Assembly (NCBI GenBank): GCA_964410915.1 | Contig: CAYPIU010000005.1 | Span: 10,834-74,833, forward strand | Source of the DNA: an uncultured Synergistales bacterium | Lineage (GTDB): Bacteria; Synergistota; Synergistia; Synergistales; JAFGMB01 | Direction of reading: 5' to 3' | Length of the DNA stretch: 64,000 nt | In this document: positions 36,984 through 62,483 of the stretch, piece by piece | Position numbering within the stretch: position 1 is the stretch's first letter | Layout of the letters: each line of letters begins with the position of its first letter | The notes under the pieces: model-generated | Databases searched by the model: none | Told to the model about the DNA's origin: nothing | Seen by the model: only the letters and a program-made list of their open reading frames with translations | Position numbers and translations under genes: made by a program

Positions 36984-37394
36984 ATGGATAAAAAGACAAG
37001 GATCATAATTCTTGCTATAGTAGCTCTGGCTGTAATTGCCACTTTCATGCTCAAAGAAAAAGACACCGGCGAAAATATTATCAGTGAACAAAAGGAATTA
37101 CCTGTACTTCTTGATCTCAGCATGAAGACCTGACCTGCATGTAAAGAAATGAAAGGAATTCTGGCAGAATTCCAGAAAGATCATGAAGACAAAATCGAGA
37201 TAAGGCTCATTGATGTATGGAAAAACCCTGATGCTGGAGAAAAGTATAAGATCAGAGTCGTTCCCACACTTATCTTCCTTGACCCCTCCGGTAAAGAACT
37301 GTACAGACAGGAAGGGATCATGACTTCCGAAGATTTATTAAAAAAATGGGAAGAACTTGGTTATAACATAACATCTACGGAAGACGGGATCTGA
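36984..37394 (+). CDS. Membrane-anchored selenocysteine thioredoxin (UPAC motif), 136 aa
   Basis: ATG 36984 after GGAGG. In-frame TGA at 37131-37133 reads ...SMKT-U-PAC-KEM and is in frame with ORF 37149..37394 (cis-Pro VVPTLIF). SECIS-like hairpin at 37155-37173. Confidence 0.9.
37155..37173 (+). promoter_or_regulatory. Bacterial SECIS-like hairpin
   Basis: ggaattct-ggc-agaattcc; the apical loop starts with GG, 29 nt after the UGA. Confidence 0.7.
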
Positions 37395-37396
37395 TC

Positions 37397-38098
37397 ATGG
37401 GTGAAATACTGAATACTGTTTATTCAGCTCTACAGGGTGGTGGGACATTAGTTCTTGGAGCATCTTTTCTCTGGGGTATAATAGGTATGCTCTTCAGTCC
37501 ATGCAGCCTCATAGCAATTCCCCTGGTAATTGGCTATATAGAATCCCAGGAAGAAAAGACAACCTCCAGCGCAGCCCTGATATCTTTAGCTTTCTCCCTG
37601 GGAATATTTATAAATATCGCGATCGTGGGCACTGTTATCGCTTCCGCAGGAACCTTAATGGCAGATCTTTCAAGAATTACAAATTATATTGTGGCTGTCA
37701 TTTTTATTCTTTTCGGGCTTCACCTTATGGAAGTGATCAGGATACCCTGGATAAACCTCAAAGGAATGAGTATAAAAAGATCAAGGGGACTCTTCGGTGC
37801 ATGGCTTCTCGGCACCTTCTCCGGAATGGCTATAGGTCCCTGTTCCTTTGCATATCTTGCCCCAATGCTTGTTCTGGCAATGAAAGCAGCAACAGGTAAT
37901 TTTTTATTTGCCTTTCTTATGGTATTAATGTATGCACTGGGCAATTGTCTGATAATTATTATTGCGGGAACATCAGCAGGTTTCGTAACGAGGTATATGA
38001 ACTTTGGTGAAAATTCCAATTTTACCCTGATAATGAACCGTATTTTTGGCGTTATTCTTATACTGGTTTCTCTATATTTTATTTACAGTGCTCCTTAA
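37397..38098 (+). CDS. ccdA: Cytochrome c biogenesis / DsbD-type transmembrane electron carrier CcdA
   Basis: FSPCSLIAIP and IGPCSFAY redox Cys pair, six TM segments; starts 2 bp after the thioredoxin stop. Confidence 0.9.
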   Translation: MGEILNTVYSALQGGGTLVLGASFLWGIIGMLFSPCSLIAIPLVIGYIESQEEKTTSSAALISLAFSLGIFINIAIVGTVIASAGTLMADLSRITNYIVAVIFILFGLHLMEVIRIPWINLKGMSIKRSRGLFGAWLLGTFSGMAIGPCSFAYLAPMLVLAMKAATGNFLFAFLMVLMYALGNCLIIIIAGTSAGFVTRYMNFGENSNFTLIMNRIFGVILILVSLYFIYSAP

Positions 38099-38143
38099 TA
38101 AAAGATATTCCAAAATTCTTGAAAGGATCAGGGAAAGACAATA

Positions 38144-38677
38144 ATGTTCATGGATATTGTTAGAAATAGATACAGCGTGAGAAAATATTCATCAAAACAG
38201 GTGGACAGAAAAGATATTGATAAATGTGTCGAAGCTGCAAGGCTTGCCCCTTCCGCCTGCAATTCCCAACCATGGTCATTTCTTATATGCGATGACATGG
38301 ACAGGAATAAATGGATATGTTCGAGGATATTTTCAGGGCCATATGCCATGAACTCTTTCGCGGGAGAGGCACCAGTAATGATATTTGTCAAAACCGAAAG
38401 ATCCATTTACACGGCGAGAATGGGCGGTTTTTTCAGGGGAGTGCAATTCAGCCTTGTTGATATAGGAATAGCGTGTGAACATTTTGCCCTTCAGGCAACT
38501 GAACTTGGTATGGGTACATGCTGGATAGGGTGGTTCAATGAAAAAGCTCTGAAAAGAGAGATCTCATTGCCTCCAAAGGAAAAGATCGACATTATATTAT
38601 CCATGGGCTATCCTTTGGAAAATGATATTCCTTTAAAAAACCGTAAAAATATTGCTTCTATACACCAATACATATAG
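38144..38677 (+). CDS. Nitroreductase family protein
   Basis: RYSVRKY, ARLAPSACNSQPWSF, LGMGTCWIG. Confidence 0.92.
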   Translation: MFMDIVRNRYSVRKYSSKQVDRKDIDKCVEAARLAPSACNSQPWSFLICDDMDRNKWICSRIFSGPYAMNSFAGEAPVMIFVKTERSIYTARMGGFFRGVQFSLVDIGIACEHFALQATELGMGTCWIGWFNEKALKREISLPPKEKIDIILSMGYPLENDIPLKNRKNIASIHQYI

Positions 38678-38711
38678 GGAAATTAAAATCCACAGAAAAA
38701 GCAAAACAATC

Positions 38712-38739
38712 TTGACAAAAAATATTCCTACTTTATAAT
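38712..38739 (+). promoter_or_regulatory. Sigma70 promoter of the T-box leader
   Basis: TTGACA-16 bp-TATAAT. Confidence 0.8.
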
Positions 38740-38779
38740 TATCTGAAATCAACCAATGGTAATATTCAGTTTTAAATTG

Positions 38780-39031
38780 GCAAAAGCGATGAACCTGGGC
38801 GCTGACCAGCATAATATCCGACAGAGAAGGGCATTCACCGGCTGAAAGGTGCCCGCGGAATAGGTGGTTTGCTCAAAACCAGGTGAGCAGGATCTGAAAG
38901 GGAAACCGGAGTAAGATCCCGGATTGGAACTCCGTAAAAAGTTTCGAGCGGGACATTTTTTAAAATGTCCAAGCAGGGTGGTATCGCGAGTATAACAGGC
39001 TCGTCCCTTCATGGGACGGGCCTGTTTTTTT
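38780..39031 (+). promoter_or_regulatory. T-box riboswitch (tRNA-Lys specifier AAA) with terminator
   Basis: Stem I with GA motif (gcgatga/tgagc), AG bulge gacagaga, loop ggctgaaa and AAA-A at 38875-38878. T-box AAGCAGGGTGGTATCGCG at 38971-38988, antiterminator partner TCGTCCCT, terminator 38994-39031. Confidence 0.9.
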
Positions 39032-39049
39032 ATAAGGAGATGAGACTTT

Positions 39050-40024
39050 ATGAAAATTGCAGTGGCAGGAGCAACAGGTGAAGTCGGCAGGATGATGACA
39101 AGGGTACTTCAGGAACATTGCGTCGAACCGGAAGATATAACTTTTTTTGCGTCAGAACGTTCACAGGGGAAAGAAGTCACATTTTACAATTATCCCTACA
39201 AGGTAGAGACCCTGACAAAAGAAGCTATGGCGAGAGGGTTTGATTATATACTGTTCTCTGCGGGTTCAGGTGTTTCAAAGGAATTCGCACCAGTAGCTGC
39301 CAGATCCGGTTCTGTGGTGATCGATAATTCATCCGGTTTTCGGATGGATCCCAATATACCGCTTGTGGTACCGGAGATCAATGGATCGCTTCTCAAAGAT
39401 TACAGAGGGATAATAGCAAACCCCAACTGCTCCACTATTCAGATGGTTCTTTCACTATATAAGGTACACCATGCTTTTGGAATAAAAAAGATAGTGGTAA
39501 GTACTTATCAGGCAGTTTCAGGTGCAGGGCACAAGGGAGTTGCCGGTCTTGAAAGGGAAGAGGAAGGCAAAATTGAACCATCTGCTTTTTCAAGACAGAT
39601 ACACAGAAACCTGATACCCCAGATCGGGAATTTTCTTGATGACGGTTTCAGTGAAGAAGAGATGAAGATGGTGAACGAGACAAGAAAAATACTTGACGAT
39701 AAAGAGATATCAATATGGCCTACAACAGTAAGAGTCCCTGTTGAATACTCACACTCCGAGGCCATATACGCGGAAACCACCCATCCGTTTACCAGTGCAG
39801 AACTTACAGAGGCAGTCAGGTCAAGTGAAAATGTAACTCTGACAGATGACTTTACAACCCCTCTTGATGCAGCAGGAACGGACGAAACATTTGTTTCCAG
39901 ACTGAGATCTTTCGACTCTACTTCATTTCTCATGTGGAACGTAGCTGACAATATAAGAGTTGGAGCGGCAACGAATGCCGTCCGTATTCTTAAAAAACAC
40001 ATGTCCATCAATCAGGTAAAATAA
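39050..40024 (+). CDS. asd: Aspartate-semialdehyde dehydrogenase
   Basis: GATGEVG, IDNSSGFRMD, ANPNCSTIQ, YQAVSGAG, VRVPVEYSHSE, DNIRVGAA. Confidence 0.96.
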   Translation: MKIAVAGATGEVGRMMTRVLQEHCVEPEDITFFASERSQGKEVTFYNYPYKVETLTKEAMARGFDYILFSAGSGVSKEFAPVAARSGSVVIDNSSGFRMDPNIPLVVPEINGSLLKDYRGIIANPNCSTIQMVLSLYKVHHAFGIKKIVVSTYQAVSGAGHKGVAGLEREEEGKIEPSAFSRQIHRNLIPQIGNFLDDGFSEEEMKMVNETRKILDDKEISIWPTTVRVPVEYSHSEAIYAETTHPFTSAELTEAVRSSENVTLTDDFTTPLDAAGTDETFVSRLRSFDSTSFLMWNVADNIRVGAATNAVRILKKHMSINQVK

Positions 40025-40079
40025 GGTCTAGAGCTGAAAGAAACCAGATTTTAAGTAACTAAAAAGGGAGGAATAGCTA

Positions 40080-40970
40080 ATGTTCACAAAAGGAACTGGA
40101 ACAGCTGTTGTAACACCTTTTACCGAAAATAATGAGATCGATTACGGGAGTTTTGGTAGTTTCCTCAACTTCCAGATCGAAAGTGGCGTCGACGCTCTTA
40201 TCGTCCTCGGGACAACCGGTGAAGCTCCCTCTGTAAGTTCAGAGGAAAGGGAAAATATCATAAGTTTTGCCGTGGAATTGAGCAATGGCAGAGTACCGAT
40301 CGTAATAGGAACCGGAAGCAATTCTACGGATCATACGATCGAGACTTCCCAACAGGCCATGTCTCTCGGAGCAGATGGAGTACTTGTAGTTACACCTTAC
40401 TATAACAAACCAACACAGGAAGGGCTTTATCAACACTACTCACAAATAGCGAAAAATGTTGATGGCCCGATCATAATCTACAACGTCCCCGGGAGAACGG
40501 GAGGAAATATTCTTCCGGCAACAGTCCTGAGATGTGCAGAATTTGAGAATATAACAGGTATAAAGGAAGCATCAGGAGACATGAAGCAGATAGACACACT
40601 GATAAGGCAGATAAAAAAGATCCGTCCTGATTTTTCCGTTTTTTCCGGAAATGATGATCAGGCTTTCCACCTTGTTTGCAGCGGAGGAGATGGTGTCATT
40701 TCGGTCCTGTCCAACGCTATGCCCTCCGAAACTGTTGAGATGATCAATGCCACCCTCGAGGGAGACCTGCAGAAAGCAAGGGGACTGCACTTGAGGATGC
40801 TTCCAATGATGAAGAACCTCTTCGCTGAAACTAACCCCATACCCGTTAAATATGCCGTAAGCAGATTGGGGTATTGCAGAAATTCACTCAGACTGCCGCT
40901 TGTCCAGGCAACCGGAAATGCAGAACGTTTGGTTGATGAAGCTATGAAAGAAAGCGGAACAAAGGTATGA
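40080..40970 (+). CDS. dapA: 4-hydroxy-tetrahydrodipicolinate synthase
   Basis: GTTGEA, VTPYYNKP, YNVPGRTG, IKEASG, ETNPIPVK. Confidence 0.96.
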   Translation: MFTKGTGTAVVTPFTENNEIDYGSFGSFLNFQIESGVDALIVLGTTGEAPSVSSEERENIISFAVELSNGRVPIVIGTGSNSTDHTIETSQQAMSLGADGVLVVTPYYNKPTQEGLYQHYSQIAKNVDGPIIIYNVPGRTGGNILPATVLRCAEFENITGIKEASGDMKQIDTLIRQIKKIRPDFSVFSGNDDQAFHLVCSGGDGVISVLSNAMPSETVEMINATLEGDLQKARGLHLRMLPMMKNLFAETNPIPVKYAVSRLGYCRNSLRLPLVQATGNAERLVDEAMKESGTKV

Positions 40971-41617
40971 AATACGGAGTGATCGGCCATTCCGGAAGGA
41001 TGGGACAGGAAATAATCAAGAATTTCAAGGGCCACGAACTGACCCTCTCCGTTGAACTTGGCAATGAGTGGATTGACAGATCACCAGACGTAATTATCGA
41101 TTTTTCGTCGGCAAGGGCCACTGCAAGGACAATAGATCTCTGCCGCGAAAACAGCAGCGCTCTGGTAATAGGGACCACTGCCCTGTCTTCAGGACAGATC
41201 GATGATCTCAAGGAACTTGGCAGGAACGTACCTGTTGTCCAGAGTTTTAATTTCTCAACCGGGATAAACATCCTGAAGATAATACTGAGGGAATTCGGGT
41301 ATATGTTCTCGGACTGGGATATGGCAATGAGTGAAACCCACCACTCCAGAAAAAAGGATGCCCCCTCCGGGACAGCGATCCTCCTGCAGGAAGCTTCCGG
41401 TAGACAATGCGATATAGCATCTCTCAGAATGGGCGGTGTCCCGGGAGATCATGAGGTTAACTTTTCCAACGAGGGAGAAATTGTGAGCCTGTCCCACCGG
41501 GCAATATCCCGAAGTGTTTTCGCATTGGGAGCTCTAAAAGCGGCAGAGTTCGCCATCTCCAGAAAGACAGGTTTTTACACATTTGAGGAGGTCATACAAT
41601 GCGGGCAGAAGAAATAA
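40967..41617 (+). CDS. dapB: 4-hydroxy-tetrahydrodipicolinate reductase
   Basis: GHSGRMG, IGTT, NFSTG, ETHHSRKKDAPSGTA, R.GGVPGDH. Confidence 0.95.
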   Translation: MKYGVIGHSGRMGQEIIKNFKGHELTLSVELGNEWIDRSPDVIIDFSSARATARTIDLCRENSSALVIGTTALSSGQIDDLKELGRNVPVVQSFNFSTGINILKIILREFGYMFSDWDMAMSETHHSRKKDAPSGTAILLQEASGRQCDIASLRMGGVPGDHEVNFSNEGEIVSLSHRAISRSVFALGALKAAEFAISRKTGFYTFEEVIQCGQKK

Positions 41618-42297
41618 TTCGCATGATAAGCGAAGCGGAAAAGAAAACCCCTGCCAAAGCCTTTGTTATGGGTGATCTGAAGGATCTGGACTGGGGTCCG
41701 CTTAAATTTATCGGCTCAAGCAGTTTTGGCGTGGTTTCAGGGGACGAGGGGTTACTGACCGAAATGATCAATAAACACAGGGACAATATCCATGAATACG
41801 ATCTCGAGGTGTATGCAAGAAACTCAGCACTGCCCTTAGCTGACCTGACCAGATATGAGGCGAGGATAGAACCGGGCGCTATCATACGTGACATGGTTGA
41901 GATAGGTAGAGGTGCTGTAATAATGATGGGGGCAGTACTCAACATAGGATGCGTAGTGGGAGAAGGTACCATGATAGACATGAACGCAGTCCTTGGAGGA
42001 AGAGCTACGATAGGTACAAACTGCCATATAGGAGCAGGGAGCGTTATAGCAGGTGTTATTGAGCCGCCAAGTGCAACACCTGTGATCGTGGAAGACGATG
42101 TTCTTGTAGGTGCAAATGCCGTGATCCTCGAAGGCGTAAGACTGGGTAAAGGTTCTGTCATAGCAGCAGGTTCGATCGTAACAAAGGATGTTGAGCCTTT
42201 TTCAGTAGTTGCAGGTGCACCTGCAAAACTTGTTAAAAAAGTTGATAGCGGAACAAGAGATAAAACAAAGATATTGAAAGAATTAAGAAACCTGTAG
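41599..42297 (+). CDS. dapH: Tetrahydrodipicolinate N-acetyltransferase
   Basis: AEEIIRMISEAEKKTP N-terminus, ARIEPGAIIRD, hexapeptide repeats, GVIEPPSA. Confidence 0.94.
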   Translation: MRAEEIIRMISEAEKKTPAKAFVMGDLKDLDWGPLKFIGSSSFGVVSGDEGLLTEMINKHRDNIHEYDLEVYARNSALPLADLTRYEARIEPGAIIRDMVEIGRGAVIMMGAVLNIGCVVGEGTMIDMNAVLGGRATIGTNCHIGAGSVIAGVIEPPSATPVIVEDDVLVGANAVILEGVRLGKGSVIAAGSIVTKDVEPFSVVAGAPAKLVKKVDSGTRDKTKILKELRNL

Positions 42298-42342
42298 ATT
42301 TTTAATATACAGAAGGTAACAGGTGAGTAATATTTCCAAGAG

Positions 42343-45924: not shown

Positions 45925-48114
45925 TCATAATTTTCGGAACATGATAAACATTAGAGGCATCATCAGCAGAATAAGAGCTCCTGAAGGTCCCACGTTACAA
46001 CCGCTGGAACCTCCTCCATGGCCATCTTCTATTTCACCGGGTTCGGGGACCTCGGAACCTGCAAGGATGGAATCATCCAGAAGTGCACCAAAGACCTCTC
46101 CCCAGCTTTCAGAAGGAAGATCTGCGCATGCTTTCCACTGCCCCTCGCCAAGATCGGTCCAGTTAACCTGGATCTCTGTCCAGCCTGAACCAGAGTACCA
46201 CCACAGATTAGGTTTATTATCGGGAAGCCATTCATAATCAGCCTCATCCAGATACCCGCATATCTCTACCGCACAGATATCATCAGAATTTACCAGATCA
46301 AGCTGGAAGAAAAGGCTTTCACCATCTTCTGGAACTTCACTCAGAAGGGGTTCTATATTCATTGAAGGTTCCCGAATATCTCCACTCACTTCTCCGTTGT
46401 TCTCCTCACTACATGGAGTTACTTTGACCTCATAGAATATCCCGTCAGGTGCAGGATATACTCCCTCGGTGGACGTGGGGAAAGGTTCCTCTTCGTAACG
46501 CCAGACCTGACAACCGTTCCCGGGATTTGACGTACCAAGCCAGAGTATGTCTTCGCCATCCTCCCGGGTTGTCACCATAGTTCTTCCGCCGTACTGGAGG
46601 GGATCTCCAAAGCCATCCTGCATAACCACTTCGAAGTTTAATCCATCTTCAGACTTGTAAAGATCAAACCCGACAGGTGAACCATGATTCAGGAAAACAT
46701 CTACGATCTCTGAAAGACTCGGGGATACGGGAAGTGTAAGACCAGCCATTTCACAAAGTGCCCTTACGTGAACCGTAACAAGGTTTTTCAGGACATCCAC
46801 AGCCACATTCTGGTTTTCCGGCATCAGTTCAATGCTGTCCCAGTCTATGGAATGAAGGAAGGACCGCCAGTCGAAGGTGGATATGTAAAGATCTCCGTCA
46901 TGGATACCCCATGTCCACAGGTAAACGTTGGTCGGTACACCAAAACCTGGAGCTTTTAGACCAGTCCCGCTACCCATGACCGTTTCCCAGCTATCTCCGT
47001 CAAAACGATAAAGATAGGAGGGAACTATACACTTTAACATCCTTGTAAGCAGCTCTTCCTCTCCCGCATTTAGAATATCAAGATCATAAAGCGGGAAACC
47101 GCCGTTCAACGTGGCGATGTAAAGATGATCGCCATAGACAAAACCGTTTGCTCCCACGTGAATGGACTGCTTGAGGCCCGGAGTCTCATCCACCCAGGAA
47201 CCTTGAATAAATGATTCGCCCTCCGAATTAACACAGGGCCCAAGATCTTCTTCCTCACATACAGGCTCCGGAACCCACCTTAAAAGACGCCAGCCATTCT
47301 CTCCATCCCCGGTAACTGCCCACAGGCTTCCCTGGTAAGAGACCAGGTCCGTTACATAGCCTTTTCCTTCAAAACCATCATTGGAAAAACGTTCCCAGCC
47401 GGATAAAGGATCAGAAGTAGAATACACCCCATACTCATAGGCCACAACAAATTGTCCGTCGTATTCCACCATACCCCTGTATGAGTAAGCTTTGTTCTCC
47501 TCCAGGTCTCCGGAGACCACTTCAGGACTTACATCAACAGGAGCGCTATCACAATCTGATATGGCAATTATCTTGGGGACACCGTCCCAATCTTGTGAAG
47601 ACATTTTCAGGTTCATAGTACCCGCGTAAAGTACTCCTTCGTAATTGTACATTTTGCGGAATCCCTGATTTCCCGAGAAATCCCCCACTCCGGTGAAAGG
47701 TGTAAGAGGAACAACTTCCCATTCCCCATTCTGGGTTATATTCTTCCGCATTATCTCCACTGTTCCCGGATCCCATGTTTCGGAAGGAGGAAGGCTGTCG
47801 CCAAAAATAGAAGGATCCATTGCCGTTCCCAGAGGAGACATAGGACCCAGAAATGCCCCATGAGGGAAATTTCGGTAGGCGCCTACGTACAGATATTCAT
47901 CCCCATCACACTGCAGAGTGCCCATTGACCATGCGTAGGAATTATTACGAGAGGGTTTTTCAGAATAAGGGGACCCTGGTACCACTGTTCCATCAACAAG
48001 ACCATCCTTTCCAACCTGGGTCCATCCCGGAGGGATCTCAGCCCAGGCACTGGAGGAAAGGACCATGCCCAAGAGAAAAATCACTATCAGTACAAAACGC
48101 ATAGATCTGTTCAT
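45925..48114 (-). CDS. Secreted surface protein with SYNERG-CTERM-like sorting tail (729 aa)
   Basis: Signal peptide ending AWA, acidic Trp/Gly-rich beta-propeller-like body, C-terminal GGGSSGCNVG + hydrophobic helix + RK. Confidence 0.88.
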   Translation of the reverse strand: MNRSMRFVLIVIFLLGMVLSSSAWAEIPPGWTQVGKDGLVDGTVVPGSPYSEKPSRNNSYAWSMGTLQCDGDEYLYVGAYRNFPHGAFLGPMSPLGTAMDPSIFGDSLPPSETWDPGTVEIMRKNITQNGEWEVVPLTPFTGVGDFSGNQGFRKMYNYEGVLYAGTMNLKMSSQDWDGVPKIIAISDCDSAPVDVSPEVVSGDLEENKAYSYRGMVEYDGQFVVAYEYGVYSTSDPLSGWERFSNDGFEGKGYVTDLVSYQGSLWAVTGDGENGWRLLRWVPEPVCEEEDLGPCVNSEGESFIQGSWVDETPGLKQSIHVGANGFVYGDHLYIATLNGGFPLYDLDILNAGEEELLTRMLKCIVPSYLYRFDGDSWETVMGSGTGLKAPGFGVPTNVYLWTWGIHDGDLYISTFDWRSFLHSIDWDSIELMPENQNVAVDVLKNLVTVHVRALCEMAGLTLPVSPSLSEIVDVFLNHGSPVGFDLYKSEDGLNFEVVMQDGFGDPLQYGGRTMVTTREDGEDILWLGTSNPGNGCQVWRYEEEPFPTSTEGVYPAPDGIFYEVKVTPCSEENNGEVSGDIREPSMNIEPLLSEVPEDGESLFFQLDLVNSDDICAVEICGYLDEADYEWLPDNKPNLWWYSGSGWTEIQVNWTDLGEGQWKACADLPSESWGEVFGALLDDSILAGSEVPEPGEIEDGHGGGSSGCNVGPSGALILLMMPLMFIMFRKL

Positions 48115-48139: not shown

Positions 48140-48225
48140 GCACTAAGGCAGCCCGGCGGTCATGGGTTGTACCTTTAGACCCGTAGCTTTGCGTCACTGT
48201 CTTTTGACAGTTTTGCCATTATCTC
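48140..48225 (-). ncRNA. c-di-GMP-I (GEMM) riboswitch
   Basis: Minus strand: GGCAAA-ACUGUC-AAAA-GACAGU-GACGCAAAGCUACGGGUCUAAAGG...CCCAUGACCGCCGGGCUGCC, about 30 nt upstream of the start codon. Confidence 0.9.
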
Positions 48226-48827
48226 TCAAATCTACATTCTTCAGAACAAAAAAGGAGCAATGAAAAATCTTAAGAAACCTTGCACCCCCCCTTTGAGAGC
48301 GGGACAAACGAATAAGATCTTAAAAAAACTTTATCCAAATCTTTTAGATATGCATTATAGGAATGAATGATCTATAGGAAAAGTATGTAAAAAGGAATGT
48401 AAAAATATGGCGATCGAAAAGAGATTAACGCTATAATCATAAAATTTAGTGAGTAATTATTTAATTTATACTATTAGATGTTTAATATTATTACATAGTG
48501 CTTAAACACATGGATGGGACTTTTAGCCATATTTTAATGGGTATTTAGACTCATTTATGATAAAAGTCGAAGGTTAAAAATATTATTCTTGATCTTTTAA
48601 TTGCAAAAAGGGGGAATAAGTGTGATTTTTTCTCTCTTAGAGATAGTAATTGATCAGCCTGACGGATTAATAAACACGTTCCTGCCGCCATTTTCCGCTG
48701 CATCCCTCTGATAAAAGATTTTTGCAGAGAAAATTGTTTCAGACCCAGTCCGGCTATTAAAATCTCTGCCTTCAGACTCGATGTTCTTCCTGTCAGATCT
48801 GTGGGATCTTTCAGGTAAAAGGGGGAA

Positions 48828-50584: not shown

Positions 50585-51871
50585 CTACATTATGCCTCCC
50601 CAGAAGATCTGAGGAAGTATCAATGTAATGGAAGGCAAATAAGTCACTATTAGAAGTACAAATATCAGTACAAGTACCATTGGTATTATAGGTTTACTGA
50701 TCTCCTCTATACTTAGGCCCGTTATTGCACTGGCAACATAAATATCGATTGCAACGGGAGGAGTCGCCATTCCTATGGCCAATCCTATGGATATCAGAAC
50801 CCCGAAATGGATAAGGTTACCTCCGAGCTGTGCAATAGTCGGAAGAAAAATAGGTGTAAGTATTATAAGAGCAGATGCCGTCTCCATGAACATTCCAGAG
50901 ATCAGTACTATCACCATTATCATAAAGTAGATCATTATGCTGTTACCACCTGCCAGGCCTATAAGAGTACTGGCAACTGCCTCAGGTACCTGGTAAAAAG
51001 CAAGACCCCATCCAAAGAGTTTTGAAGTAGCTATAATGAACATTATCAGGGAAGAGGTTATTCCTGCTCCCACAACTATTTTATAAAACTTTTTAAAATC
51101 AAGGTTTTTATATACAAAGAACGCTACAAAGAAGGAATAGTCCACCGCAATTGCAGCTGCTTCTGAAGGTGTGAACCAACCCGAAAAAATACCTCCAAGA
51201 ATAATTACCGGCGTCATAAGACCCCATAATGACCTTTTAAACCTTGCCATTTTCTCACTGAAAGAAACTGGATCACTTGCCGGATAGTTTCGTTTTCTGG
51301 CTACATAGAGCGCAAGAGTGATGAGTCCGATCCCCATAAGAGCTCCAGGTATAAAGCCGGCCATAAATAGTTTCGCCACAGATTCTCCTGAAATAACCGC
51401 ATAAAGAACCATGGGGACACTTGGCGGAATAACCACACCAATGGTCCCCGATGCAGCTATAAGGGCAGCTGAAAAATCGACATCATATCCCTTTTCCTCA
51501 AGATCAGGCAGCAGTGCAGAGCCTACTGCAGCTGTCGTTGCTGCACCCGAACCTGAAATAGCAGCTATAAACATGGAAGCTACTGTCGATACTATGGATA
51601 AACCGCCCTTTATTCTACCCAGAGTAGCCTCTGCAAAGGAAATTATCTTTTCCGATATACCTCCCTTGGCCAGAATATCACCAGCGAGTATGAAGAATGG
51701 AACGGCTACGAGAGCAAAAGAGTTGTTGCCCATAAACATCATTTGAGGAACCATCTGAAAGGGCAGATCATTAATTACAAGCACTGAAAAAGCAGAAATA
51801 CCTATAGCAAGACCTATGGGCATCCCCAACAGCATTAAGAGAAAAAAGATACCTCCAAGAAATGCACCCAT
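50585..51871 (-). CDS. dctM: TRAP large permease DctM
   Basis: AVPFFILAG, SGSGAA, IPPSVPMVLY, FTPSEAA, MATPPV. Confidence 0.94.
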   Translation of the reverse strand: MGAFLGGIFFLLMLLGMPIGLAIGISAFSVLVINDLPFQMVPQMMFMGNNSFALVAVPFFILAGDILAKGGISEKIISFAEATLGRIKGGLSIVSTVASMFIAAISGSGAATTAAVGSALLPDLEEKGYDVDFSAALIAASGTIGVVIPPSVPMVLYAVISGESVAKLFMAGFIPGALMGIGLITLALYVARKRNYPASDPVSFSEKMARFKRSLWGLMTPVIILGGIFSGWFTPSEAAAIAVDYSFFVAFFVYKNLDFKKFYKIVVGAGITSSLIMFIIATSKLFGWGLAFYQVPEAVASTLIGLAGGNSIMIYFMIMVIVLISGMFMETASALIILTPIFLPTIAQLGGNLIHFGVLISIGLAIGMATPPVAIDIYVASAITGLSIEEISKPIIPMVLVLIFVLLIVTYLPSITLILPQIFWGGIM

Positions 51872-51873
51872 TA

Positions 51874-52389
51874 TCAGCGCCTCCTGACTACGTCATAAAG
51901 ACCATCTAAAAGATGAATAAGTATCACAATGCCCATACCGGGATACATTAGATATATCCAGAACATTGAAAGTCCCATGGCGGGAGTTGTCTGTGAACCT
52001 TCACTGATCATCATAACCACTCCGTACCATGCCATAACCGCAAAAAAGATTATTCCCAGGATCTGCACAAAAAGGGCGATAAGCTTGTTAAGAACACGAG
52101 GCAGTTTATTGACAAAAAAAGTGATCGCTATATGGCTGCCTCTTTTAAAAGCTATTGAAGCACCTACAAGTGAGGAAAAAACAAGCATAAAACGCGTAAG
52201 CTCCTCAGACCAGATCAGAGCCTCAAAAAAGAATCTGCATATTATCTGCAGCGTTGTAAGAAGTATCATCCCTACTATGAGAATGAAGAGCAAAACTTCA
52301 CTGTACTTGTTGATCCTGTCGCTTAAACCCCGCAGGGGCGATCCAGAAGGACCGCTCCCTGCTGATCTGGTTCCTGTCATAGTTATCAC
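51874..52389 (-). CDS. dctQ: TRAP small permease DctQ
   Basis: WSEELTRF, GSHIAI, four TM segments. Confidence 0.92.
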   Translation of the reverse strand: MITMTGTRSAGSGPSGSPLRGLSDRINKYSEVLLFILIVGMILLTTLQIICRFFFEALIWSEELTRFMLVFSSLVGASIAFKRGSHIAITFFVNKLPRVLNKLIALFVQILGIIFFAVMAWYGVVMMISEGSQTTPAMGLSMFWIYLMYPGMGIVILIHLLDGLYDVVRRR

Positions 52390-52391
52390 TT

Positions 52392-53396
52392 TTATTCAGC
52401 TTTTGTTTCTGCTATGGCCTCAAGAAGATCTTCGCCGAACTGTGAACCGTATTCGTCATAAACCGGCTGTACAGCCTCTCTGAAAGCAGCGAGGTCTGGA
52501 TCTTCTACTACATTCATACCCTGGTCCTTAAGGAATGCAAGCCATTCTTCAGCTTTGTCGTTATCATATTTTCTATTTGCTTCGGCCGCAAGCTGAGCAG
52601 CTTCCTGAACCACTTCCTGCTGTTCGGGAGTAAGTTTATCCCATGAGCGCATACTCATCATGACAACATTGGGAGCATAAGCATGTCTTGTCAGGGAAAG
52701 ATATTCCTGGCTCTCGTAGAGTTTGAAGGCAACGATAACGTTAAGAGGGTTTTCCTGACCATCAATTGTCTTCTGCTGAAGTGCAGTAAGAGCCTCAGTC
52801 CAGGCCATTGGAACCGCATTAGCACCTAGGGTCTTGAAAGTTTTAACATAGATCGGATTCTGCATGAGGCGGACTTTCAGCCCCTCAACATCTGCCGGAG
52901 TTTTCACAGCACGTTTACTGTTGGTAAGATTACGGAAACCTCTTTCACCGTAGGCCAGACCTTTCCATCCCTGATCTTCCAATTTTCCGAGAAGTGTTTT
53001 TCCCACAGGTCCATCAAGAACAGCATAAGCATGGGAAGGACTTCTGAAAAGGAATGGGAGATCAAAAACTCCAAATTCCGGGATGAAGTTTATGATAGGT
53101 CCACTCGTTATGATACCTGCATCCACGACACCCATTTTCATGCCTTCAAGGAGAGCTCTTTCATCTCCAAGTTTTGCATTCGGGAAAATAGTTACGGTAA
53201 CATCTCCATCAGTCTTTTCTTCAACGATTTCCTTGAATTTCAGTGCGCAAACGTGAAAGGCATCTTTTTCATTGACAACATGTGCGATCTTGATATTCGT
53301 GCCTTTCGCCATCGCAACAGGCGCAACAAGGGCAACTGACAGACATACTGCTAATAAAACGATAAGTGCTTTTTTCATAAAAAAACCTCCCTGCAA
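52392..53396 (-). CDS. dctP: TRAP solute-binding protein DctP
   Basis: FPNAKLGDER, GERGFRN, GLKVRLM, ALQQKTIDGQENP. The true start may be a few codons downstream (MKKALIV). Confidence 0.94.
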   Translation of the reverse strand: MQGGFFMKKALIVLLAVCLSVALVAPVAMAKGTNIKIAHVVNEKDAFHVCALKFKEIVEEKTDGDVTVTIFPNAKLGDERALLEGMKMGVVDAGIITSGPIINFIPEFGVFDLPFLFRSPSHAYAVLDGPVGKTLLGKLEDQGWKGLAYGERGFRNLTNSKRAVKTPADVEGLKVRLMQNPIYVKTFKTLGANAVPMAWTEALTALQQKTIDGQENPLNVIVAFKLYESQEYLSLTRHAYAPNVVMMSMRSWDKLTPEQQEVVQEAAQLAAEANRKYDNDKAEEWLAFLKDQGMNVVEDPDLAAFREAVQPVYDEYGSQFGEDLLEAIAETKAE

Positions 53397-53400
53397 TATT

Positions 53401-56558: not shown

Positions 56559-56592
56559 GCAAGAGAATATTTAAAAAATTACATAGTTTAAA

Positions 56593-57360: not shown

Positions 57361-57378
57361 CCAGGAAAACCTCCTGTG

Positions 57379-58668
57379 TTACAGATTAAGAAGTCCGGGT
57401 ATAAAAGTACATATTACGGGAAAGGTTATAAGTATGAGAAGAACGATCATAGCTACACCTATGAACGGCCATATTACCCTGAATACATCTCCTAGTTTTA
57501 CTTTGCCGACAGCAGCCACAATGTAGTTACACGCACCCATGGGTGGAGTTATTAGCGCAATAGTAACGTTAAGGGTCATTACAATACCGAAATGGAAAGG
57601 ATTAATTCCTGCCTTAATGGCTAAAGGCGCAAAGATCGGAGTAAGAAGTGTCAGGGTTGAAACCTCTTCCATGAACATACCCACCGGAAAGATTATCGCA
57701 CTCAGGACAACCATGAGAAGCCATGGTGTCTCGATAAGACCTGATTGAATTATAATTGCCGCAAATTTCTGGGGGATCTGCTCCCATTTGAGAAGCCACC
57801 CTATTACTGTAGCTGCACCCATGATAAGAAATATCGAGCTGGTAAGTCTTACTGTCTCATATATGGATTCGGCGAGAGATCTGAGACTAAGCTGTCTTGT
57901 ATATAAGAAACCTGCCACAAGACAGTAAGCTGAACCTAAAGCGCCTGACTCTGTAGGAGTTACTACCCCGGTTACTATTCCTCCAATTATTATTACTGGT
58001 GCAACAAGAGCAACTCCGGATCTCAGAAGGATTTTTCCTGCCTGTTGTCTTGCTTCCCTGAAATCTGAAACTGGGACATCATATTTTCTGGAAAAATACC
58101 AGTTCATGATCATGAAGGCCAGCCCAAGGACAAGTCCAGGTAACAATCCTGCTGCAAAAAGCCCTCCAATGGAAGTATTTGTCATGGTGGCATAAATGAT
58201 CATAAAGATACTTGGAGGTATTATGGGACCGATCAGCGAACTACTGGCAGTAAGACCTGCAGAATATGAAGGAGGAAACCCTTCCTTTACCATAGCGGGA
58301 ATAAGAATGGAGCCCAGTGCAGATGCATCAGCCGCAGCAGATCCATTCACCCCTGCAAGGATAATTCCTCCCACTACATTCACATAACCGAGACCCCCCC
58401 TTACCGACCCAACTATCAACCTGCTGAAATCAAGCATACGGTCAGTAAGACCGGATCTGTTCATAAGGATCCCTGCAAAAATGAAAAAAGGGATCGCCAT
58501 AAGGGAGAAAATATCCATACCACCATAAAACTGCTGAGCCATAACACCAAGGATGGACCAGTCCCCAAGGATCGCTATTCCAATAAAAGAGCTTGTAAGA
58601 AGAGAAAGATAAAGAGGAACACCAAGGATCATCAGGGTAAAGAAAGAAAGCAGCATTGTTATGCCCAT
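57379..58668 (-). CDS. dctM: TRAP large permease DctM
   Basis: AIPFFIFAG, GSAAADA, IIPPS, TPTES, ITPPMG. Start set at ATG 58668. Confidence 0.93.
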   Translation of the reverse strand: MGITMLLSFFTLMILGVPLYLSLLTSSFIGIAILGDWSILGVMAQQFYGGMDIFSLMAIPFFIFAGILMNRSGLTDRMLDFSRLIVGSVRGGLGYVNVVGGIILAGVNGSAAADASALGSILIPAMVKEGFPPSYSAGLTASSSLIGPIIPPSIFMIIYATMTNTSIGGLFAAGLLPGLVLGLAFMIMNWYFSRKYDVPVSDFREARQQAGKILLRSGVALVAPVIIIGGIVTGVVTPTESGALGSAYCLVAGFLYTRQLSLRSLAESIYETVRLTSSIFLIMGAATVIGWLLKWEQIPQKFAAIIIQSGLIETPWLLMVVLSAIIFPVGMFMEEVSTLTLLTPIFAPLAIKAGINPFHFGIVMTLNVTIALITPPMGACNYIVAAVGKVKLGDVFRVIWPFIGVAMIVLLILITFPVICTFIPGLLNL

Positions 58669-58670
58669 AT

Positions 58671-59162
58671 CTATTTCCAGCCCCCTTTCCCTTCCAGTAG
58701 ATTCTTCAGAATATATATTGCCAGAAGAAGTCCGAAACCCAGAGGAACAGCTAAAAGCGGTATCGTTTTCGGAACATGGAGTGCCATGGTATGCATTTCC
58801 CAAACACTGATCGCGTTGACAGTTCCAAGATATATCATTAAAGAAAGGATAGACACTGTGAGAAGCAGTCTGAAAACATAGACCACCTTTCGCAAAGCCG
58901 GAGGAAACCTGTGTACTACAAAATCGATGACCATATGGTCACCATGATAGTAGGCTCCTCCAGCAGCCATAAGCACGAGCCAGACAAGTGAAAAGCGGGC
59001 AAGCTCTTCAGTCCATATTATTGAGTTTTTGAGAACATACCTGCAGAAAATACCCAATAAAACATCTGCAATATTAATAACAAGAAGCGCCCCGGCGGTC
59101 CATGCGCTGAGGCGCTCAAGAAATCTCAGGGTATGTTCAGTCCTGCCCTGAAGATTGTTCAA
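58671..59162 (-). CDS. dctQ: TRAP small permease DctQ
   Basis: WTEELARF, GDHMVID. TTG start at 59162 after GGAGG. Confidence 0.9.
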   Translation of the reverse strand: MNNLQGRTEHTLRFLERLSAWTAGALLVINIADVLLGIFCRYVLKNSIIWTEELARFSLVWLVLMAAGGAYYHGDHMVIDFVVHRFPPALRKVVYVFRLLLTVSILSLMIYLGTVNAISVWEMHTMALHVPKTIPLLAVPLGFGLLLAIYILKNLLEGKGGWK

Positions 59163-59164
59163 TT

Positions 59165-60229
59165 TTACTTTCCTCCTGCTTCCCTGTTCGCTTTCGAGGC
59201 ACATTCAAGGGCAAGTTCTACCCATTCGCCGCCAATCTTCTCCTGAAGCCAGTCTATATATGCAGGCTGACCTTTTGACCTGAACTTCTCCATTTCACTC
59301 TCATTGGGAGAATAGGCCTCCATACCATTATCTACAAGAAACTTAATATCCTCCTTATCCTGTTTTTCCATTACCTGCCTGTTAATACCGTTAGCCTCTG
59401 CAGATGCCTCGAATATGGCATTTCTGTTGTCTTCAGACATTTCGTCCATTACATCTCCATTGATAACAAGGAACTGGTCCGAATACTGGATGTTGGCAAG
59501 AGTAAGATATTTCTGAACTTCGTAAAGGCTTCCCATTTTGATATACATGGCAGGATTCATCTGACCATCAACAACTCCTGTTTTCAGGGCCATGTAAAGC
59601 TCAGTCCAGGGGATAGGAGTACCACTTGCTCCAAAAGATTTGTACAGTGCTATCTGATCCTCAGCCATACCACGGAATTTTAAACCTTCAAAATCCGAAG
59701 GAACACGGATCTCCTTTTTAGAGTTAGTAAAAGCAAGGAAACCCCCTTCTTCAACTACCTCGACCAGATAAGCGCCAGTCCTTTCCTTGAATTCATCCCT
59801 GGCCTTACTGATAAAAGCACTGGAATCGAAAAATATGTGAGCTGCTTTATAGCTGTCAAAAAGAAAGGGTATGTTACTTGCATACATTTCGGGGAAGAGA
59901 GGAGCAATACCAGCATATGATGCAACATTTATTATTGGCTGATTCATTCCTGATTTCATAAGAAGCTGCATTCTTTCCTCTTCGTTGCCCAACTGACTGT
60001 CAGGGAACAGCCTTACCAGGACCTCGCCATCTGTTTTTGCTTCAACTGCTTTTTTGAAATTACTTGCAAAAAGATGAACAGCATTGTTGTCTGGATCAGC
60101 TGGACCATTATATGACATTTTAAGCTCAAGAGCCGCCTCTGAAACTGAAAAACACGAAAAAAGCAGTATCAGAACAATCGCAGGAACTCCCAAAAACCAA
60201 CCTGACTTAAACATCTTCACATTTATCAC
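59165..60229 (-). CDS. dctP: TRAP solute-binding protein DctP
   Basis: Signal peptide, FPDSQLG, GLKFRGM, YMALKTGVVDGQMNP; start uncertain by a few codons. Confidence 0.92.
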   Translation of the reverse strand: MINVKMFKSGWFLGVPAIVLILLFSCFSVSEAALELKMSYNGPADPDNNAVHLFASNFKKAVEAKTDGEVLVRLFPDSQLGNEEERMQLLMKSGMNQPIINVASYAGIAPLFPEMYASNIPFLFDSYKAAHIFFDSSAFISKARDEFKERTGAYLVEVVEEGGFLAFTNSKKEIRVPSDFEGLKFRGMAEDQIALYKSFGASGTPIPWTELYMALKTGVVDGQMNPAMYIKMGSLYEVQKYLTLANIQYSDQFLVINGDVMDEMSEDNRNAIFEASAEANGINRQVMEKQDKEDIKFLVDNGMEAYSPNESEMEKFRSKGQPAYIDWLQEKIGGEWVELALECASKANREAGGK

Positions 60230-60583
60230 TCCCCGTTTTAATTATGGATCAAACCTGGACTTATATGAAATGTTTAACAGTTTAACCCCTTACAGAAATA
60301 GTAAGTAACCCTCCCATTATTGTCAAACAGGGATCCATATTAAAAAACGTCCAATTATCTTAAAAGATCCCGCTTAAAAAACAGATCATTAAAGACCCAT
60401 TCACCGTAAAGGTTTTCGCTAAGAAGTTTTTATATATCGGAAAAATGATCAGCCATTGGTAAAAAATAGTTATATTCACTACTTTGATTTACCTGTTCTT
60501 GATCAAACAACGCTCCGTTGTAATAATGTAGTAAAATGTTATCAGGCTCGAAATATAACAGATACCTGAAAGGATATGACTTT

Positions 60584-60808
60584 ATGTATCACCCCATAAG
60601 TGATTACGGGATCATAGGAGATCTATATACGGTCGCCCTGATAAACAGGACAGGCTCTATGGAGTGGTTATGCCTTCCCTTTCTGGATTCCCCAGGCGTT
60701 TTTGGACCTCTCCTCAATTATGAGAGGATTTTCATCATGGAATCCGTTAAGACACTTAAAATATCTTATAGTGATTATGACTGGAGGTTGAACAGGTATG
60801 AAGAATAA
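60584..60808 (+). pseudogene. N-terminal remnant of a GH15 (glucoamylase/trehalase-like) gene
   Basis: [44 protein letters not shown] matches the GH15 N-terminus (I.DY..IGD..T.AL....GS..WLC.P.FDSP..F..LL). Similarity stops after about 45 aa, whereas full-length proteins are about 600 aa. Confidence 0.75.
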
Positions 60809-61175
60809 TGATCCTGATAAGATCATTGAAAGAACTTCCTTCGGTGAAATAGTCGTAAACGGGGAAAAATATGAAAAGGACATTTACATCAATATTTCCG
60901 GGAAGATCAGGAAAAGAAAGAAAAAACTTTCCAAAAAGAGATGCGGTACTTCCCATATTATTTCACTGGAAGAGGCAGAATATGTCTATGAAAAGGGATT
61001 GGAAGAACTGATAATTGGAACAGGCCAGGAAGGGCTGGTAACACTTTCACCGGAAGCCAGAAGTTTTTTCAGTGATATGGGCTGCAATGTAATGATGTCA
61101 CCGACATGAAAGGCCATAGAGACATATAATAATTCCAAAAAAGTTAAAGCAGGACTCTTCCATATTACATGTTGA
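60798..61175 (+). pseudogene. Mth938-like (DUF498) protein interrupted by an in-frame TGA at 61107-61109
   Basis: FGEIVVNGEKYEKDI, LIIGTGQEG, then PT*KAIETYN...AGLFHITC*. The family C-terminal motif continues in frame after the TGA. Confidence 0.75.
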
Positions 61176-61213
61176 AAAAGGGTGCGGTATATATACCGCA
61201 CCCTTTTTCAACA
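61170..61213. terminator. Perfect 44-bp palindrome, bidirectional terminator
   Basis: tgttgaaaaagggtgcggtata|tataccgcaccctttttcaaca. Confidence 0.8.
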
Positions 61214-61235
61214 ATCTGGCTATTTTGAGAAAAGA

Positions 61236-61397
61236 TCATAAAGAACTAAAAGACCTTTTATGTTTTTTTTCTTCAGCGTTAAGTTCCTGCAAAACCTGCA
61301 CATAACGGCTTTCCCACTCCCCATTTTGCATCAAAAGCGCCTCTTCATGGGTCTCGAGGAACTTTTTTTCTTCAAGAAGATATCGTATTCTATCCAA
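61236..61397 (-). CDS. Unannotated small protein (53 aa)
   Basis: GGGGAGTGAGGA RBS then TTG: MDRIRYLLEEKKFLETHEEALLMQNGEWESRYVQVLQELNAEEKKHKRSFSSL; ends just before the palindromic terminator. Confidence 0.5.
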   Translation of the reverse strand: MDRIRYLLEEKKFLETHEEALLMQNGEWESRYVQVLQELNAEEKKHKRSFSSL

Positions 61398-61718
61398 AAT
61401 TCCTCACTCCCCTGCCTTAAAAATATTTGAAACGCTATATGAAAAAGGGATATATCTTACACAGGAGTATATCGATCCTTCCTGAATTACACTTTCAGGA
61501 ACTTGATTATAATACTTCACGAGCATAAAACTCAATACTAAAATCAATTGGAAGCCTGATTATAATGTATAATCACTCATCATCTTTAAGATATCTGTTT
61601 ATGATCCATGTCCCACCATAATCCCGGGCTGACAAGGGCAACACAACAAACTTAAGGCCCTGGTAATTCCGGGTTAACAGTCAGTTCGATCCGTCCTGAA
61701 ATACTGGTTGTTATATTA

Positions 61719-62483
61719 TCAGCGAATCTGCACCGCTTTTTTGACTTTTTCCAGACTTTCCTCTGTCAGACCAAGTAGGGGACCGATCTCTTCCAGCTGA
61801 GGAAATGCTCCCCAACCTGCCAGAAAACCGTTGACCCTTGCAACTGCAGTTGAATTTATTAGATCATTATCATCAGGATAGTATTTTTTGAATTCTTCCA
61901 GTATGGCAGAATGCATTTTTAAACTGTATTTCTGATGATAATTTTCCGCCATATAGAATACTTTAAATGGGGTTACAAGAGTCTGTATCTTTTTTGAGTT
62001 TTCTTTTTCCCATTTCTCTATTGATCTCAATATTTCTGATTCTTGCAGATCATCGTGGGAAAATATGATGGACATATATTGTTTTGACCAGGTTTTTCTT
62101 GAAGGGTCATGACTTTTCCAGAAAATATCAAGAAGCTCACTGTAAGATATTTTCTTTGGGTCAAAATCTATCTGTATGGTCTCCGTATGATCTCCAAGTT
62201 CATAATAAGTAGGATTCTCTTTCGATCCTCCCGAATAACCAACTCTTGTTCTTATAACACCCGGGATGATACCAAACCTGGCATCAGGACCCCAGAATCA
62301 GCCAAGGGCAAAAGTAGCGGTTTCGTAATTATCGGGGATATTTTTGTCAATAGGCGGAACCAGTTGTGTCTTAACATCTGAATACTCCACAGAACATGCC
62401 TCCCTTTGCGGAAATATATGGAATACCAAAAAGAGAATAACTAAAACGACAGTTAGGTTTGTGAATATTTTATCGATACTCAT
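61719..62483 (-). CDS. msrA: Selenocysteine-containing methionine sulfoxide reductase A with N-terminal TM/signal segment (254 aa)
   Basis: ORFs 62298..62483 and 61719..62075 are one frame joined by TGA 62298-62300: ETATFALG-U-FWG, then RTRVGYSGG, NPTY, DHTE, FW..HDP and AENYHQKY. Confidence 0.92.
62262..62294 (-). promoter_or_regulatory. Bacterial SECIS-like hairpin of msrA
   Basis: mRNA: lower stem UGGGGU/AUCCCG, upper stem GAUGCCA/UGGUAUC, loop GGUU starting 19 nt after the UGA. Confidence 0.75.

Follow-up and report, generated by a model that had tools for sequence, protein, structure and literature searches.

Glutathione and glutaredoxin are not expected outside the cytoplasm, and DsbD/CcdA systems supply reductant there. 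Envelope methionine-sulfoxide repair is known from a few cysteine-based systems in pathogens, and the way strict anaerobes protect their envelope under oxygen is poorly known. We analysed a stretch of 64,000 nucleotides from an uncultured Synergistales bacterium (GenBank assembly GCA_964410915.1, contig CAYPIU010000005.1, positions 10,834 to 74,833; hereafter the window), which carries a gene for the transmembrane carrier CcdA and two genes with an in-frame TGA that we read as selenocysteine (Sec), one encoding a membrane-anchored thioredoxin (Trx) and the other a methionine sulfoxide reductase A (MsrA). The pneumococcal CcdA-Etrx-MsrAB2 system (PMC3914529) and the Fusobacterium trx-ccdA-msrAB system (PMC9239216) are Cys-based, with msr in or beside the ccdA/trx operon, and the pneumococcal Etrx2-CcdA2 pair, encoded away from msrAB2, still reduces MsrAB2 (PMC3914529). 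A Sec-glutaredoxin is described as reducing the Sec-MsrA of Clostridium (Alkaliphilus) oremlandii, a 'tandem use of selenocysteine' (Kim et al. 2011, cited in PMC4479559). The chemistry of such 1-Cys MsrA enzymes requires an external nucleophile, and small thiols such as dithiothreitol (DTT) work in vitro (PMC4479559); the selenenic acid of mammalian MsrB1 is resolved by an N-terminal Cys, and mammalian MsrA is made as two isoforms through alternative initiation (PMC6316033). A recent inventory lists both Trx (UxxC) and MsrA (GUFWG) among the known selenoprotein families (PMC13188914).

An earlier note on this DNA had proposed a selenium-based repair chain in the envelope, running from CcdA through the Sec-thioredoxin to the Sec-MsrA, and had known of no description of such a Sec-Sec envelope relay. 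Our literature search found no selenoprotein linked with CcdA and no envelope Sec-Sec relay, but the relay as such is already known, since the Sec-glutaredoxin and Sec-MsrA pair of the cytoplasm has been published; what would be new is an envelope version. We consider it probable that the window holds two real selenoprotein genes in two separately inherited modules and that Trx-CcdA is a general envelope reducing module. That MsrA is a client of this module, and the chain real, is possible, and we put it forward tentatively.

The Trx-CcdA module and the msrA gene

The Trx start is preceded by GGAGG (36972-36976, spacing 7 nt), and the product reads MDKKTRIIILAIVALAVIATFML...DLSMKT-TGA-PACKEM... 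from its N-terminus and MDKKTRIIILAIVALAVIATFMLKEKDTGENIISEQKELPVLLDLSMKT-TGA-PACKEMKGILAEF... across the TGA (Table 1). With the TGA read as Cys, the product matched the Pfam Thioredoxin family (PF00085, E 4.9e-13), and codon 50 aligned with a Cys of full-length homologues (LVDLGADKCIPCK; KCIPCK). In the PDB, classical thioredoxins ranked behind the best match, the uncharacterised TCPYC protein 2L57; in an NCBIfam search the domain resembled the C-terminal domain of DsbD, and no curated selenoprotein model was reached. The anchor, a 17-residue hydrophobic helix, is flanked by D2, K3, K4 and R6 on its N-side (+2) and by KEKDTGE on its C-side (-1). Because the positive charges sit N-side of the anchor, the positive-inside rule leads us to expect an N-in/C-out topology, with the domain facing outward.

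Table 1. Features of the Trx-CcdA and msrA loci, with positions in the window
Feature	Position	Strand	Description
Selenoprotein thioredoxin gene	36984..37394	+	136 codons, active site T-U-P-A-C; translation, Pfam PF00085, Cys/Sec alignment
Thioredoxin N-terminal membrane anchor	37002..37052	+	Residues 7-23, IIILAIVALAVIATFML; same anchor in relatives
In-frame TGA read as Sec, thioredoxin	37131..37133	+	Codon 50; TGA in 6/6 Synergistales lineages
Thioredoxin hairpin resembling a selenocysteine insertion sequence (SECIS)	37155..37173	+	GGAAUUC-UGGCA-GAAUUCC, 21 nt after UGA; centroid fold
CcdA (DsbD transmembrane-domain family)	37397..38098	+	233 aa; Pfam PF02683 DsbD_TM, E 2.1e-15
Nitroreductase-family gene	38144..38677	+	Pfam PF00881, E 3.8e-30; uncertain third operon gene
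Selenoprotein MsrA gene	61719..62483	-	254 codons, G-U-F-W-G, C-terminal helical domain; Pfam, PDB matches
MsrA SECIS-like hairpin	62267..62286	-	UGAUGCCA-GGUU-UGGUAUCA, 11 nt after UGA; weaker lower stem to ~62255
In-frame TGA read as Sec, MsrA	62298..62300	-	Codon 62
Internal Shine-Dalgarno (SD) sequence and possible second start	62388..62405	-	AGGGAGG (62405-62399), 8-nt spacer, in-frame GTG 62390-62388, codon 32
MsrA N-terminal hydrophobic anchor	62412..62468	-	Residues 6-24, IFTNLTVVLVILFLVFHIF

The ccdA gene starts 2 nt past the Trx stop, and the two genes, judged from the sequence, are translationally coupled in one operon. CcdA has about six hydrophobic segments by hydropathy, with Cys36 and Cys149 in SPC/GPC motifs, and matched region 175-382 of NCBIfam DsbD; a PDB sequence search returned no match. 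The pair, always with Trx first, is kept in six Synergistales lineages and in Cys-form relatives, and its Synergistales context is fixed, with an M20 peptidase gene on one side, Trx, CcdA and nitroreductase together, and then the lysine genes and umuDC. The nitroreductase gene follows ccdA in five of the six lineages, being absent in L095, and in L085 and L087 the called nitroreductase gene overlaps ccdA (L085 8893-9528). On the strength of the operon structure, the conservation in six lineages and the family precedent, the predicted step from CcdA to the Sec-thioredoxin is well supported.

The nearest Cys-form (CIPC) homologues of the Trx, 43-50% identical, occupy, in three independent contexts, operons of the composition ArsR / ArsP_1 permease / Thioredoxin_3 / Trx / CcdA. 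A cluster of the form ArsR / ArsP_1 permease / (DGC) / Thioredoxin_3 / Trx / CcdA recurs at four loci (L088, L177, L178 and L179), once with a rhodanese. We also observed a rubrerythrin gene (33067-33537, plus strand) 3.5 kb upstream of the Trx-CcdA operon, and one or two rubrerythrin genes occupy the same position in all Synergistales relatives examined.

At the other locus, GAGGTG (62498-62493) lies 9 nt upstream of the msrA ATG. The gene reads MSIDKIFTNLTVVLVILFLVFHIFPQREACSVEYSDVKTQLVPPIDKNIPDNYETATFALG-TGA-FWGPDARFG..., the context of the TGA being FALG-TGA-FWGPD, and the N-terminus includes LTVVLVILFLVFHIF. Its product matched Pfam PMSR (E 6.3e-42), PF20939 (MsrA_helical) was found in homologues, and residues 54-251 matched the C. 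oremlandii MsrA (PDB 4U66/4LWJ, E 2.5e-57, ~50% identity), helical domain included. By these matches the enzyme is of the C. oremlandii 1-Cys type, and U62 aligns with the Cys of GCFWG in homologues. The sole Cys is C30, in the linker, with none in residues 54-254, which comprise the catalytic and helical domains. A relative 89% identical (L098) retains the SD sequence, the ATG, the anchor, C30 and the TGA, and its substitutions relative to the window gene are third-position-biased on both sides of the TGA.

Most of what the earlier note had said of the individual genes was thereby upheld. All three lie where it had placed them, with 36984 as the Trx ATG and 62483 as the msrA ATG on the minus strand; the membrane-anchored Sec-thioredoxin is borne out by its TGA, Cys alignment, constrained hairpin and anchor, and the CcdA carrier by its DsbD_TM match, two Cys residues and shared operon; and the parts are of the same kinds as in the pneumococcal CcdA-Etrx-MsrAB2 (PMC3914529) and fusobacterial Trx-CcdA-MsrAB (PMC9239216) systems. 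Both genes are also, as it had stated, invisible to standard calling of open reading frames (ORFs): public gene calls hold the Trx as fragments of 47-56 and 78-82 aa and MsrA as a 118-aa fragment. For MsrA, the hydrophobic anchor and the lack of a resolving Cys in the catalytic and helical domains agreed with its description, but it had left aside the linker residue C30, which could be the resolving residue of the long form.

Support for recoding came from comparison of relatives. Six distinct Synergistales lineages all keep the Trx TGA (T/A-U-P-A-C), the in-frame N-terminal anchor and the hairpin GGAAUUC-UGGNN-GAAUUCC, in whose arms a single A-to-G change occurred, with a G-U pair retained. 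The arm codons Ile AUU, Leu CUG, Glu GAA and Phe UUC have invariant third positions across these lineages, whereas other equally conserved residues (Val, Pro, Arg and Thr) show all four bases there, and in the Trx relatives the reading frame is intact and substitutions favour third positions both before and after the TGA. For MsrA, we sampled 80 genome loci from many phyla; as these are the nearest matches to the query, the proportions carry a bias. The catalytic codon was TGA in 66 and TGC or TGT in 14. One TGA locus, L061, was excluded from subsequent counts, and covariation was measured on 66 sequences aligned without gaps, namely the window gene and 65 loci. In the TGA-form genes, six base pairs form a stem capped by a GUU/GGUU loop at 14-17 nt past the UGA, and the window hairpin lies at the same place, one register off. 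In the 66 TGA forms, 84.8% of the stem cells were paired, and double-sided changes numbered 55, compared with 27.9 +/- 3.9 in shuffles, none of 500 shuffles being as high; in slid registers pairing dropped to 22-62%. Among the 14 Cys forms, five of the six pairs (columns 18-32, 19-31, 20-30, 21-29 and 23-27) were only 7-57% paired, the sixth (22-28) being paired in 93% of the Cys forms as well. The window MsrA hairpin folds at -19.6 kcal/mol, with a modest z of -1.7 to -2.0, and, the folding-energy signals being weak to modest, we relied on the comparative evidence for both hairpins. Because each TGA is aligned with a catalytic Cys and followed by a constrained hairpin, and because coding is conserved on both sides, we assign both with high confidence as Sec codons. 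A scan of unannotated space in the window for further genes with an in-frame TGA left only trx and msrA standing out.

Long and short forms of MsrA

The MsrA anchor has 19 residues, with a net charge of 0 on its N-side (+1 in L098) and -2 on its C-side. A transmembrane (TM) segment matching it in length and position is found in the closest full-length homologues (P0001, P0002, P0006 and others), other Synergistota members (L014 and L019) have classical signal peptides, and no signal-peptidase site or lipobox was found when the window N-terminus was read for them. The long form is most likely held by an anchor that is not cleaved, its domain lying outside. We scored N-termini of sufficient length at 60 loci (53 Sec forms and 7 Cys forms) with hydropathy thresholds and farthest-ATG starts, topology being read from hydropathy and charge counts only. 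On this basis, 27 of the 53 Sec-MsrAs have a hydrophobic N-terminal extension, be it a signal peptide, lipobox or TM anchor, and of the 28 long forms, 27 of them Sec and one Cys, at least 16 have a lipobox-like motif. With 27 of 53 Sec forms extended, exported Sec-MsrA looks widespread, accounting for about half of the Sec-type genes in the subfamily; our literature search found no description of an exported Sec-MsrA.

The internal GTG of the window gene lies 30 codons before Sec, which is the exact start of the signal-less Synergistales relative L005. Similar starts are enriched among the long forms. An in-frame ATG 18-41 codons before Sec was found at 17 of the 28 long-form loci, against 7.5 expected (p 1.8e-4), and an SD-like motif lay upstream of 16 of 25 such ATGs, compared with 22.6% at linker positions (p 1.1e-5) and a background of 12.7% for ATGs inside the MsrA domain. 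The 16 SD-bearing ATGs are located 18-39 codons before Sec, 14 of them at 26-35, the zone in which short forms start, and in independent metagenome contigs 16 of 17 long forms had an internal SD and start. This SD is encoded by a recurrent K/Q-G-G-E/T-x-M peptide right after the TM segment. The pattern suggests that long-form msrA may give rise to exported and cytoplasmic isoforms from one gene, and use of just one of the two starts is possible. The long-form Sec-MsrA genes with an internal start come from many phyla (L009-L084, L099-L125).

Three further observations concern the MsrA sequence. A P-P-I-D motif at residues 43-46 (62345-62356, minus strand) precedes Sec by 16-19 residues and shows conservation of at least 90% in long and short forms. 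The motif is missing from the crystallised C. oremlandii enzyme, whose chain begins 8 residues ahead of Sec, and it may serve in docking or as part of the structure. Some database MsrA entries read G-W-F-W-G (P0011, P0047, P0048, P0056, P0069 and others), and as locus L009, compared with P0048, has TGA at that codon, such entries are Sec genes with the TGA translated as Trp. In addition, residues 51-190 gave a partial match (E 4.9e-10) to NCBIfam NF041383 (VPGUxxT family thioredoxin-like (seleno)protein, type 2), which implies that fusions of a Trx-like seleno-domain with an MsrA-like domain exist elsewhere.

Gene neighbourhoods and the recycling of MsrA

In the window, trx-ccdA and msrA are 25 kb apart on opposite strands, separated by asd-dapA-dapB-dapD-lysC, umuDC, a gene for a 729-aa protein, ilvD, two TRAP systems, a GntR regulator, ddl and an M15 dipeptidase gene. 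When the window Trx and CcdA served as tblastn queries against the 80 MsrA genome loci, no Trx was detected, and the single CcdA hit was a distant one at L077, 10 kb from a signal-less MsrA; the same search of 83 further MsrA loci found neither. No CcdA or Trx was present near the TM-anchored MsrA-MsrB fusions (P0001 and P0040). Pfam was also run on 148 ORFs lying no more than 2.5 kb from the 28 long-form msrA genes: no family occurred in more than four members, and Thioredoxin, DsbD_TM, Redoxin and SelR were not among the 25 most frequent neighbour families listed. Conversely, no MsrA lay within 10 kb of any of 19 Trx-CcdA loci. Summed over ~165 MsrA loci and the 19 Trx-CcdA loci, the neighbourhoods gave no linkage, so the functional link drawn by the earlier note gained no support from this side. 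It had proposed co-occurrence of the two genes in Synergistota as a check, and the only case shown is the nearest relative, in which MsrA and Trx fragments lie on one 65,372-nt contig, as synteny would explain. A protein search of the more distant Synergistales with Trx-CcdA turned up no close orthologue of MsrA, which is weak evidence given the fast divergence of the helical domain. P0168, tried as a further case, was rejected because it belongs to an unrelated genome.

The electron flow that we infer from the operon structure and from the roles of CcdA/DsbD proteins in other organisms begins with CcdA, which would draw electrons from cytoplasmic thioredoxin and reduce the selenenylsulfide of the Sec-thioredoxin. 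The latter, with Sec as the attacking residue of U-P-A-C, would then reduce envelope clients, the pair acting in effect as a split DsbD. The monocistronic MsrA, its long form fixed by the uncleaved anchor to the outer face of the inner membrane, would reduce Met-S-sulfoxide in envelope proteins and pass into a selenenic acid, to be recycled by a reductant on the outside. If the Sec-thioredoxin plays this part, an Se-Se bond would form when its selenolate attacks Se-OH; Cys53 would then resolve the bond, after which CcdA would reset the thioredoxin.

Whether this last sequence is the physiological envelope repair chain of the organism we regard as doubtful, although a case can be made for it. 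The window contains each of the three parts, a common compartment is predicted for them, and the nearest relative has both genes on one contig. The 1-Cys chemistry demands an external nucleophile (PMC4479559), of which a CcdA-fed protein would be the obvious source where glutathione and glutaredoxin are not expected (PMC3914529). Sec-on-Sec reduction has a cytoplasmic precedent (PMC4479559, its ref 14), and the pneumococcal Etrx2-CcdA2 makes it plausible that an unlinked Trx-CcdA serves an Msr (PMC3914529). The step from Sec-thioredoxin to Sec-MsrA is plausible and chemically reasonable; the genomic comparisons did not support it.

A number of points weigh against the chain or the recoding and topology on which it is built. 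No neighbourhood link was found in either direction in any sampled lineage, the Cys homologues of the Trx go with ArsR / ArsP_1 / Thioredoxin_3, and the protein search gave no close MsrA orthologue for the more distant Synergistales with Trx-CcdA, weak as this is. According to PMC4479559 (refs 12-14), the C. oremlandii Sec-MsrA, the closest characterised enzyme, is not reduced by thioredoxin but is reduced by glutaredoxin, a Sec-glutaredoxin included. Since only 64 kb of the genome are visible, other CcdA/DsbD modules may exist. The argument for a purely envelope MsrA is weakened by the internal start, which could render much of the protein cytoplasmic, and the N-region charge of the anchor is weak in a topology taken from hydropathy and charge. 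The folding energy of the Trx hairpin by itself is not significant (z -1.0). Finally, the window has no tRNA and no selA, selB, selC or selD, as judged by Pfam on ~45 of its ORFs, those at ~26.6-33 kb being named only by synteny with L001, so that the Sec machinery is assumed from the conserved TGAs of the relatives.

An explanation to which we give a similarly modest chance is that the exported MsrA is recycled otherwise, by a DsbD/CcdA-fed thiol protein encoded outside the window, by linker Cys30 together with such a protein, or by sulfide or cysteine, small reductants plentiful in anoxic habitats, and that the Sec-thioredoxin has other clients. It accords with the exported long forms standing alone in 28 of 28 genome contexts, with no dedicated partner evident, with the ability of small thiols such as DTT to serve 1-Cys enzymes in vitro (PMC4479559), and with the resolution of the MsrB1 selenenic acid by an N-terminal Cys (PMC6316033), C30 being kept in L098. 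However, it names no alternative partner, C30 is not family-wide, the only N-terminal Cys of most long forms is that of the lipobox, and the small-thiol route is speculation.

MsrA may, alternatively, be mainly or only cytoplasmic, through a start at GTG 62390 or a long-form domain that faces inward, and be recycled by, for example, glutaredoxin-like selenoproteins; this appears unlikely. The AGGGAGG and GTG codon 32 at the start site of the signal-less L005, the enrichment of internal SD and ATG in long forms, replicated in 16 of 17 metagenome contigs, and the weak n-region charge all point that way. Yet the upstream ATG has its own GAGGTG, and in L098 the extension is open, hydrophobic and free of indels, an indel lying immediately before the ATG. 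The TM segment recurs in the closest full-length homologues, and many family members have textbook in-frame signal peptides or lipoboxes, several without an internal ATG; moreover, both isoforms may be made, in which case the envelope form remains. That the TGAs are true stops, in pseudogenes or split genes, is hardly credible: the fragmentary public gene calls, the lack of Sec machinery in the window and the absence of any SECIS family from an Rfam gathering scan of the window (its sole match was a c-di-GMP riboswitch) are outweighed by TGAs located exactly at the catalytic Cys position in both genes and conserved across lineages (66 of 80 MsrA loci) with constrained hairpins, covarying in MsrA, and by purifying selection on both sides of each TGA.

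Returning to the reading that we favour, of two selenoprotein genes in separately inherited modules, what is apparently new is the breadth of exported Sec-MsrA with its internal start, and the setting of known selenoprotein families in the envelope. The fuller picture of an all-selenium envelope relay, the first Sec-to-Sec pair outside the cytoplasm, in which about half of anaerobe Sec-MsrAs are exported, often as lipoproteins, and most are also made as a cytoplasmic isoform, is a speculative one. If the relay were true, it would place selenium chemistry on the outer side of the membrane, with a risk of over-oxidation and no glutathione, and would identify what reduces the exported 1-Cys Sec-MsrAs, a large set that is so far undescribed. 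Whether or not the link holds, the conserved internal start points to a bacterial MsrA that one gene supplies to two compartments, as in mammals. As annotation splits both genes, the envelope redox capacity of Synergistota and many other anaerobes is under-counted.

Elsewhere in the window, a c-di-GMP-I-GGC riboswitch (48143-48226, minus strand; 67.6 bits, E 7.9e-14) lies just upstream of the 729-aa ORF (45925-48114, minus strand), which had no Pfam match. Five TRAP/TAXI-type transporter systems (415-3414, 14556-17510, 24034-26480, 50585-53396 and 57379-60229) are present in the 64 kb, as are a 2-oxoacid dehydrogenase complex and genes for ornithine degradation and lysine biosynthesis, typical of the genome of an amino-acid-fermenting Synergistota.

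Comparison with known systems

The window MsrA resembles that of C. oremlandii in its GUFWG motif, its extra C-terminal helical domain and the lack of a resolving Cys in the catalytic and helical domains. The C. oremlandii enzyme, however, has 209 residues, is cytoplasmic and lacks an N-terminal extension, whereas the window enzyme is extended by 53 residues that include a membrane anchor and an IPPID motif. The notion that one Sec protein recycles another is likewise shared with the Sec-glutaredoxin and Sec-MsrA of C. oremlandii, the reductant there being a glutathione-using glutaredoxin and the candidate here a CcdA-fed protein of thioredoxin fold. The selenoprotein thioredoxin of the inventory (PF00085, UxxC; PMC13188914), entered there as a prokaryotic family with experimental support, has the same fold with Sec at the first motif position, but is treated as soluble, whereas that of the window is membrane-anchored and in an operon with CcdA.

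As in S. pneumoniae (CcdA1/2-Etrx1/2-MsrAB2) and at the S. gordonii and F. nucleatum loci (PMC7034828, PMC9239216), CcdA adjoins a predicted extracytoplasmic protein of thioredoxin fold. In those systems an extracytoplasmic Msr is the client, a role that is proposed here for MsrA. They are Cys-based throughout, whereas the window pair uses Sec; their Msr is a 2-Cys-type MsrA-MsrB fusion, whereas the window has a 1-Cys MsrA and no MsrB; and their msr genes are in or beside the ccdA/trx operon, unlike the window msrA, although the pneumococcal Etrx2-CcdA2 is unlinked to msr, as is the window Trx-CcdA. The Etrx proteins are lipoproteins of ~185 residues, and the window Trx consists of a classical Trx domain of 86 residues joined to a TM anchor.

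Neisseria PilB is reportedly made in a secreted and a truncated cytoplasmic form (Skaar et al. 2002), which would parallel the internal start of the window msrA. In PilB (Trx-MsrA-MsrB; Brot et al. 2006, cited in PMC3526765), a DsbD-family membrane protein feeds the Trx domain that recycles an envelope Msr. PilB differs in being a single fused Cys-based polypeptide served by a full three-domain DsbD. With regard to E. coli DsbD, the window CcdA matches the transmembrane core and the window Trx the C-terminal domain, and the pair therefore looks like a DsbD split into two genes, in which the N-terminal immunoglobulin-like domain is absent and Sec replaces the attacking Cys.

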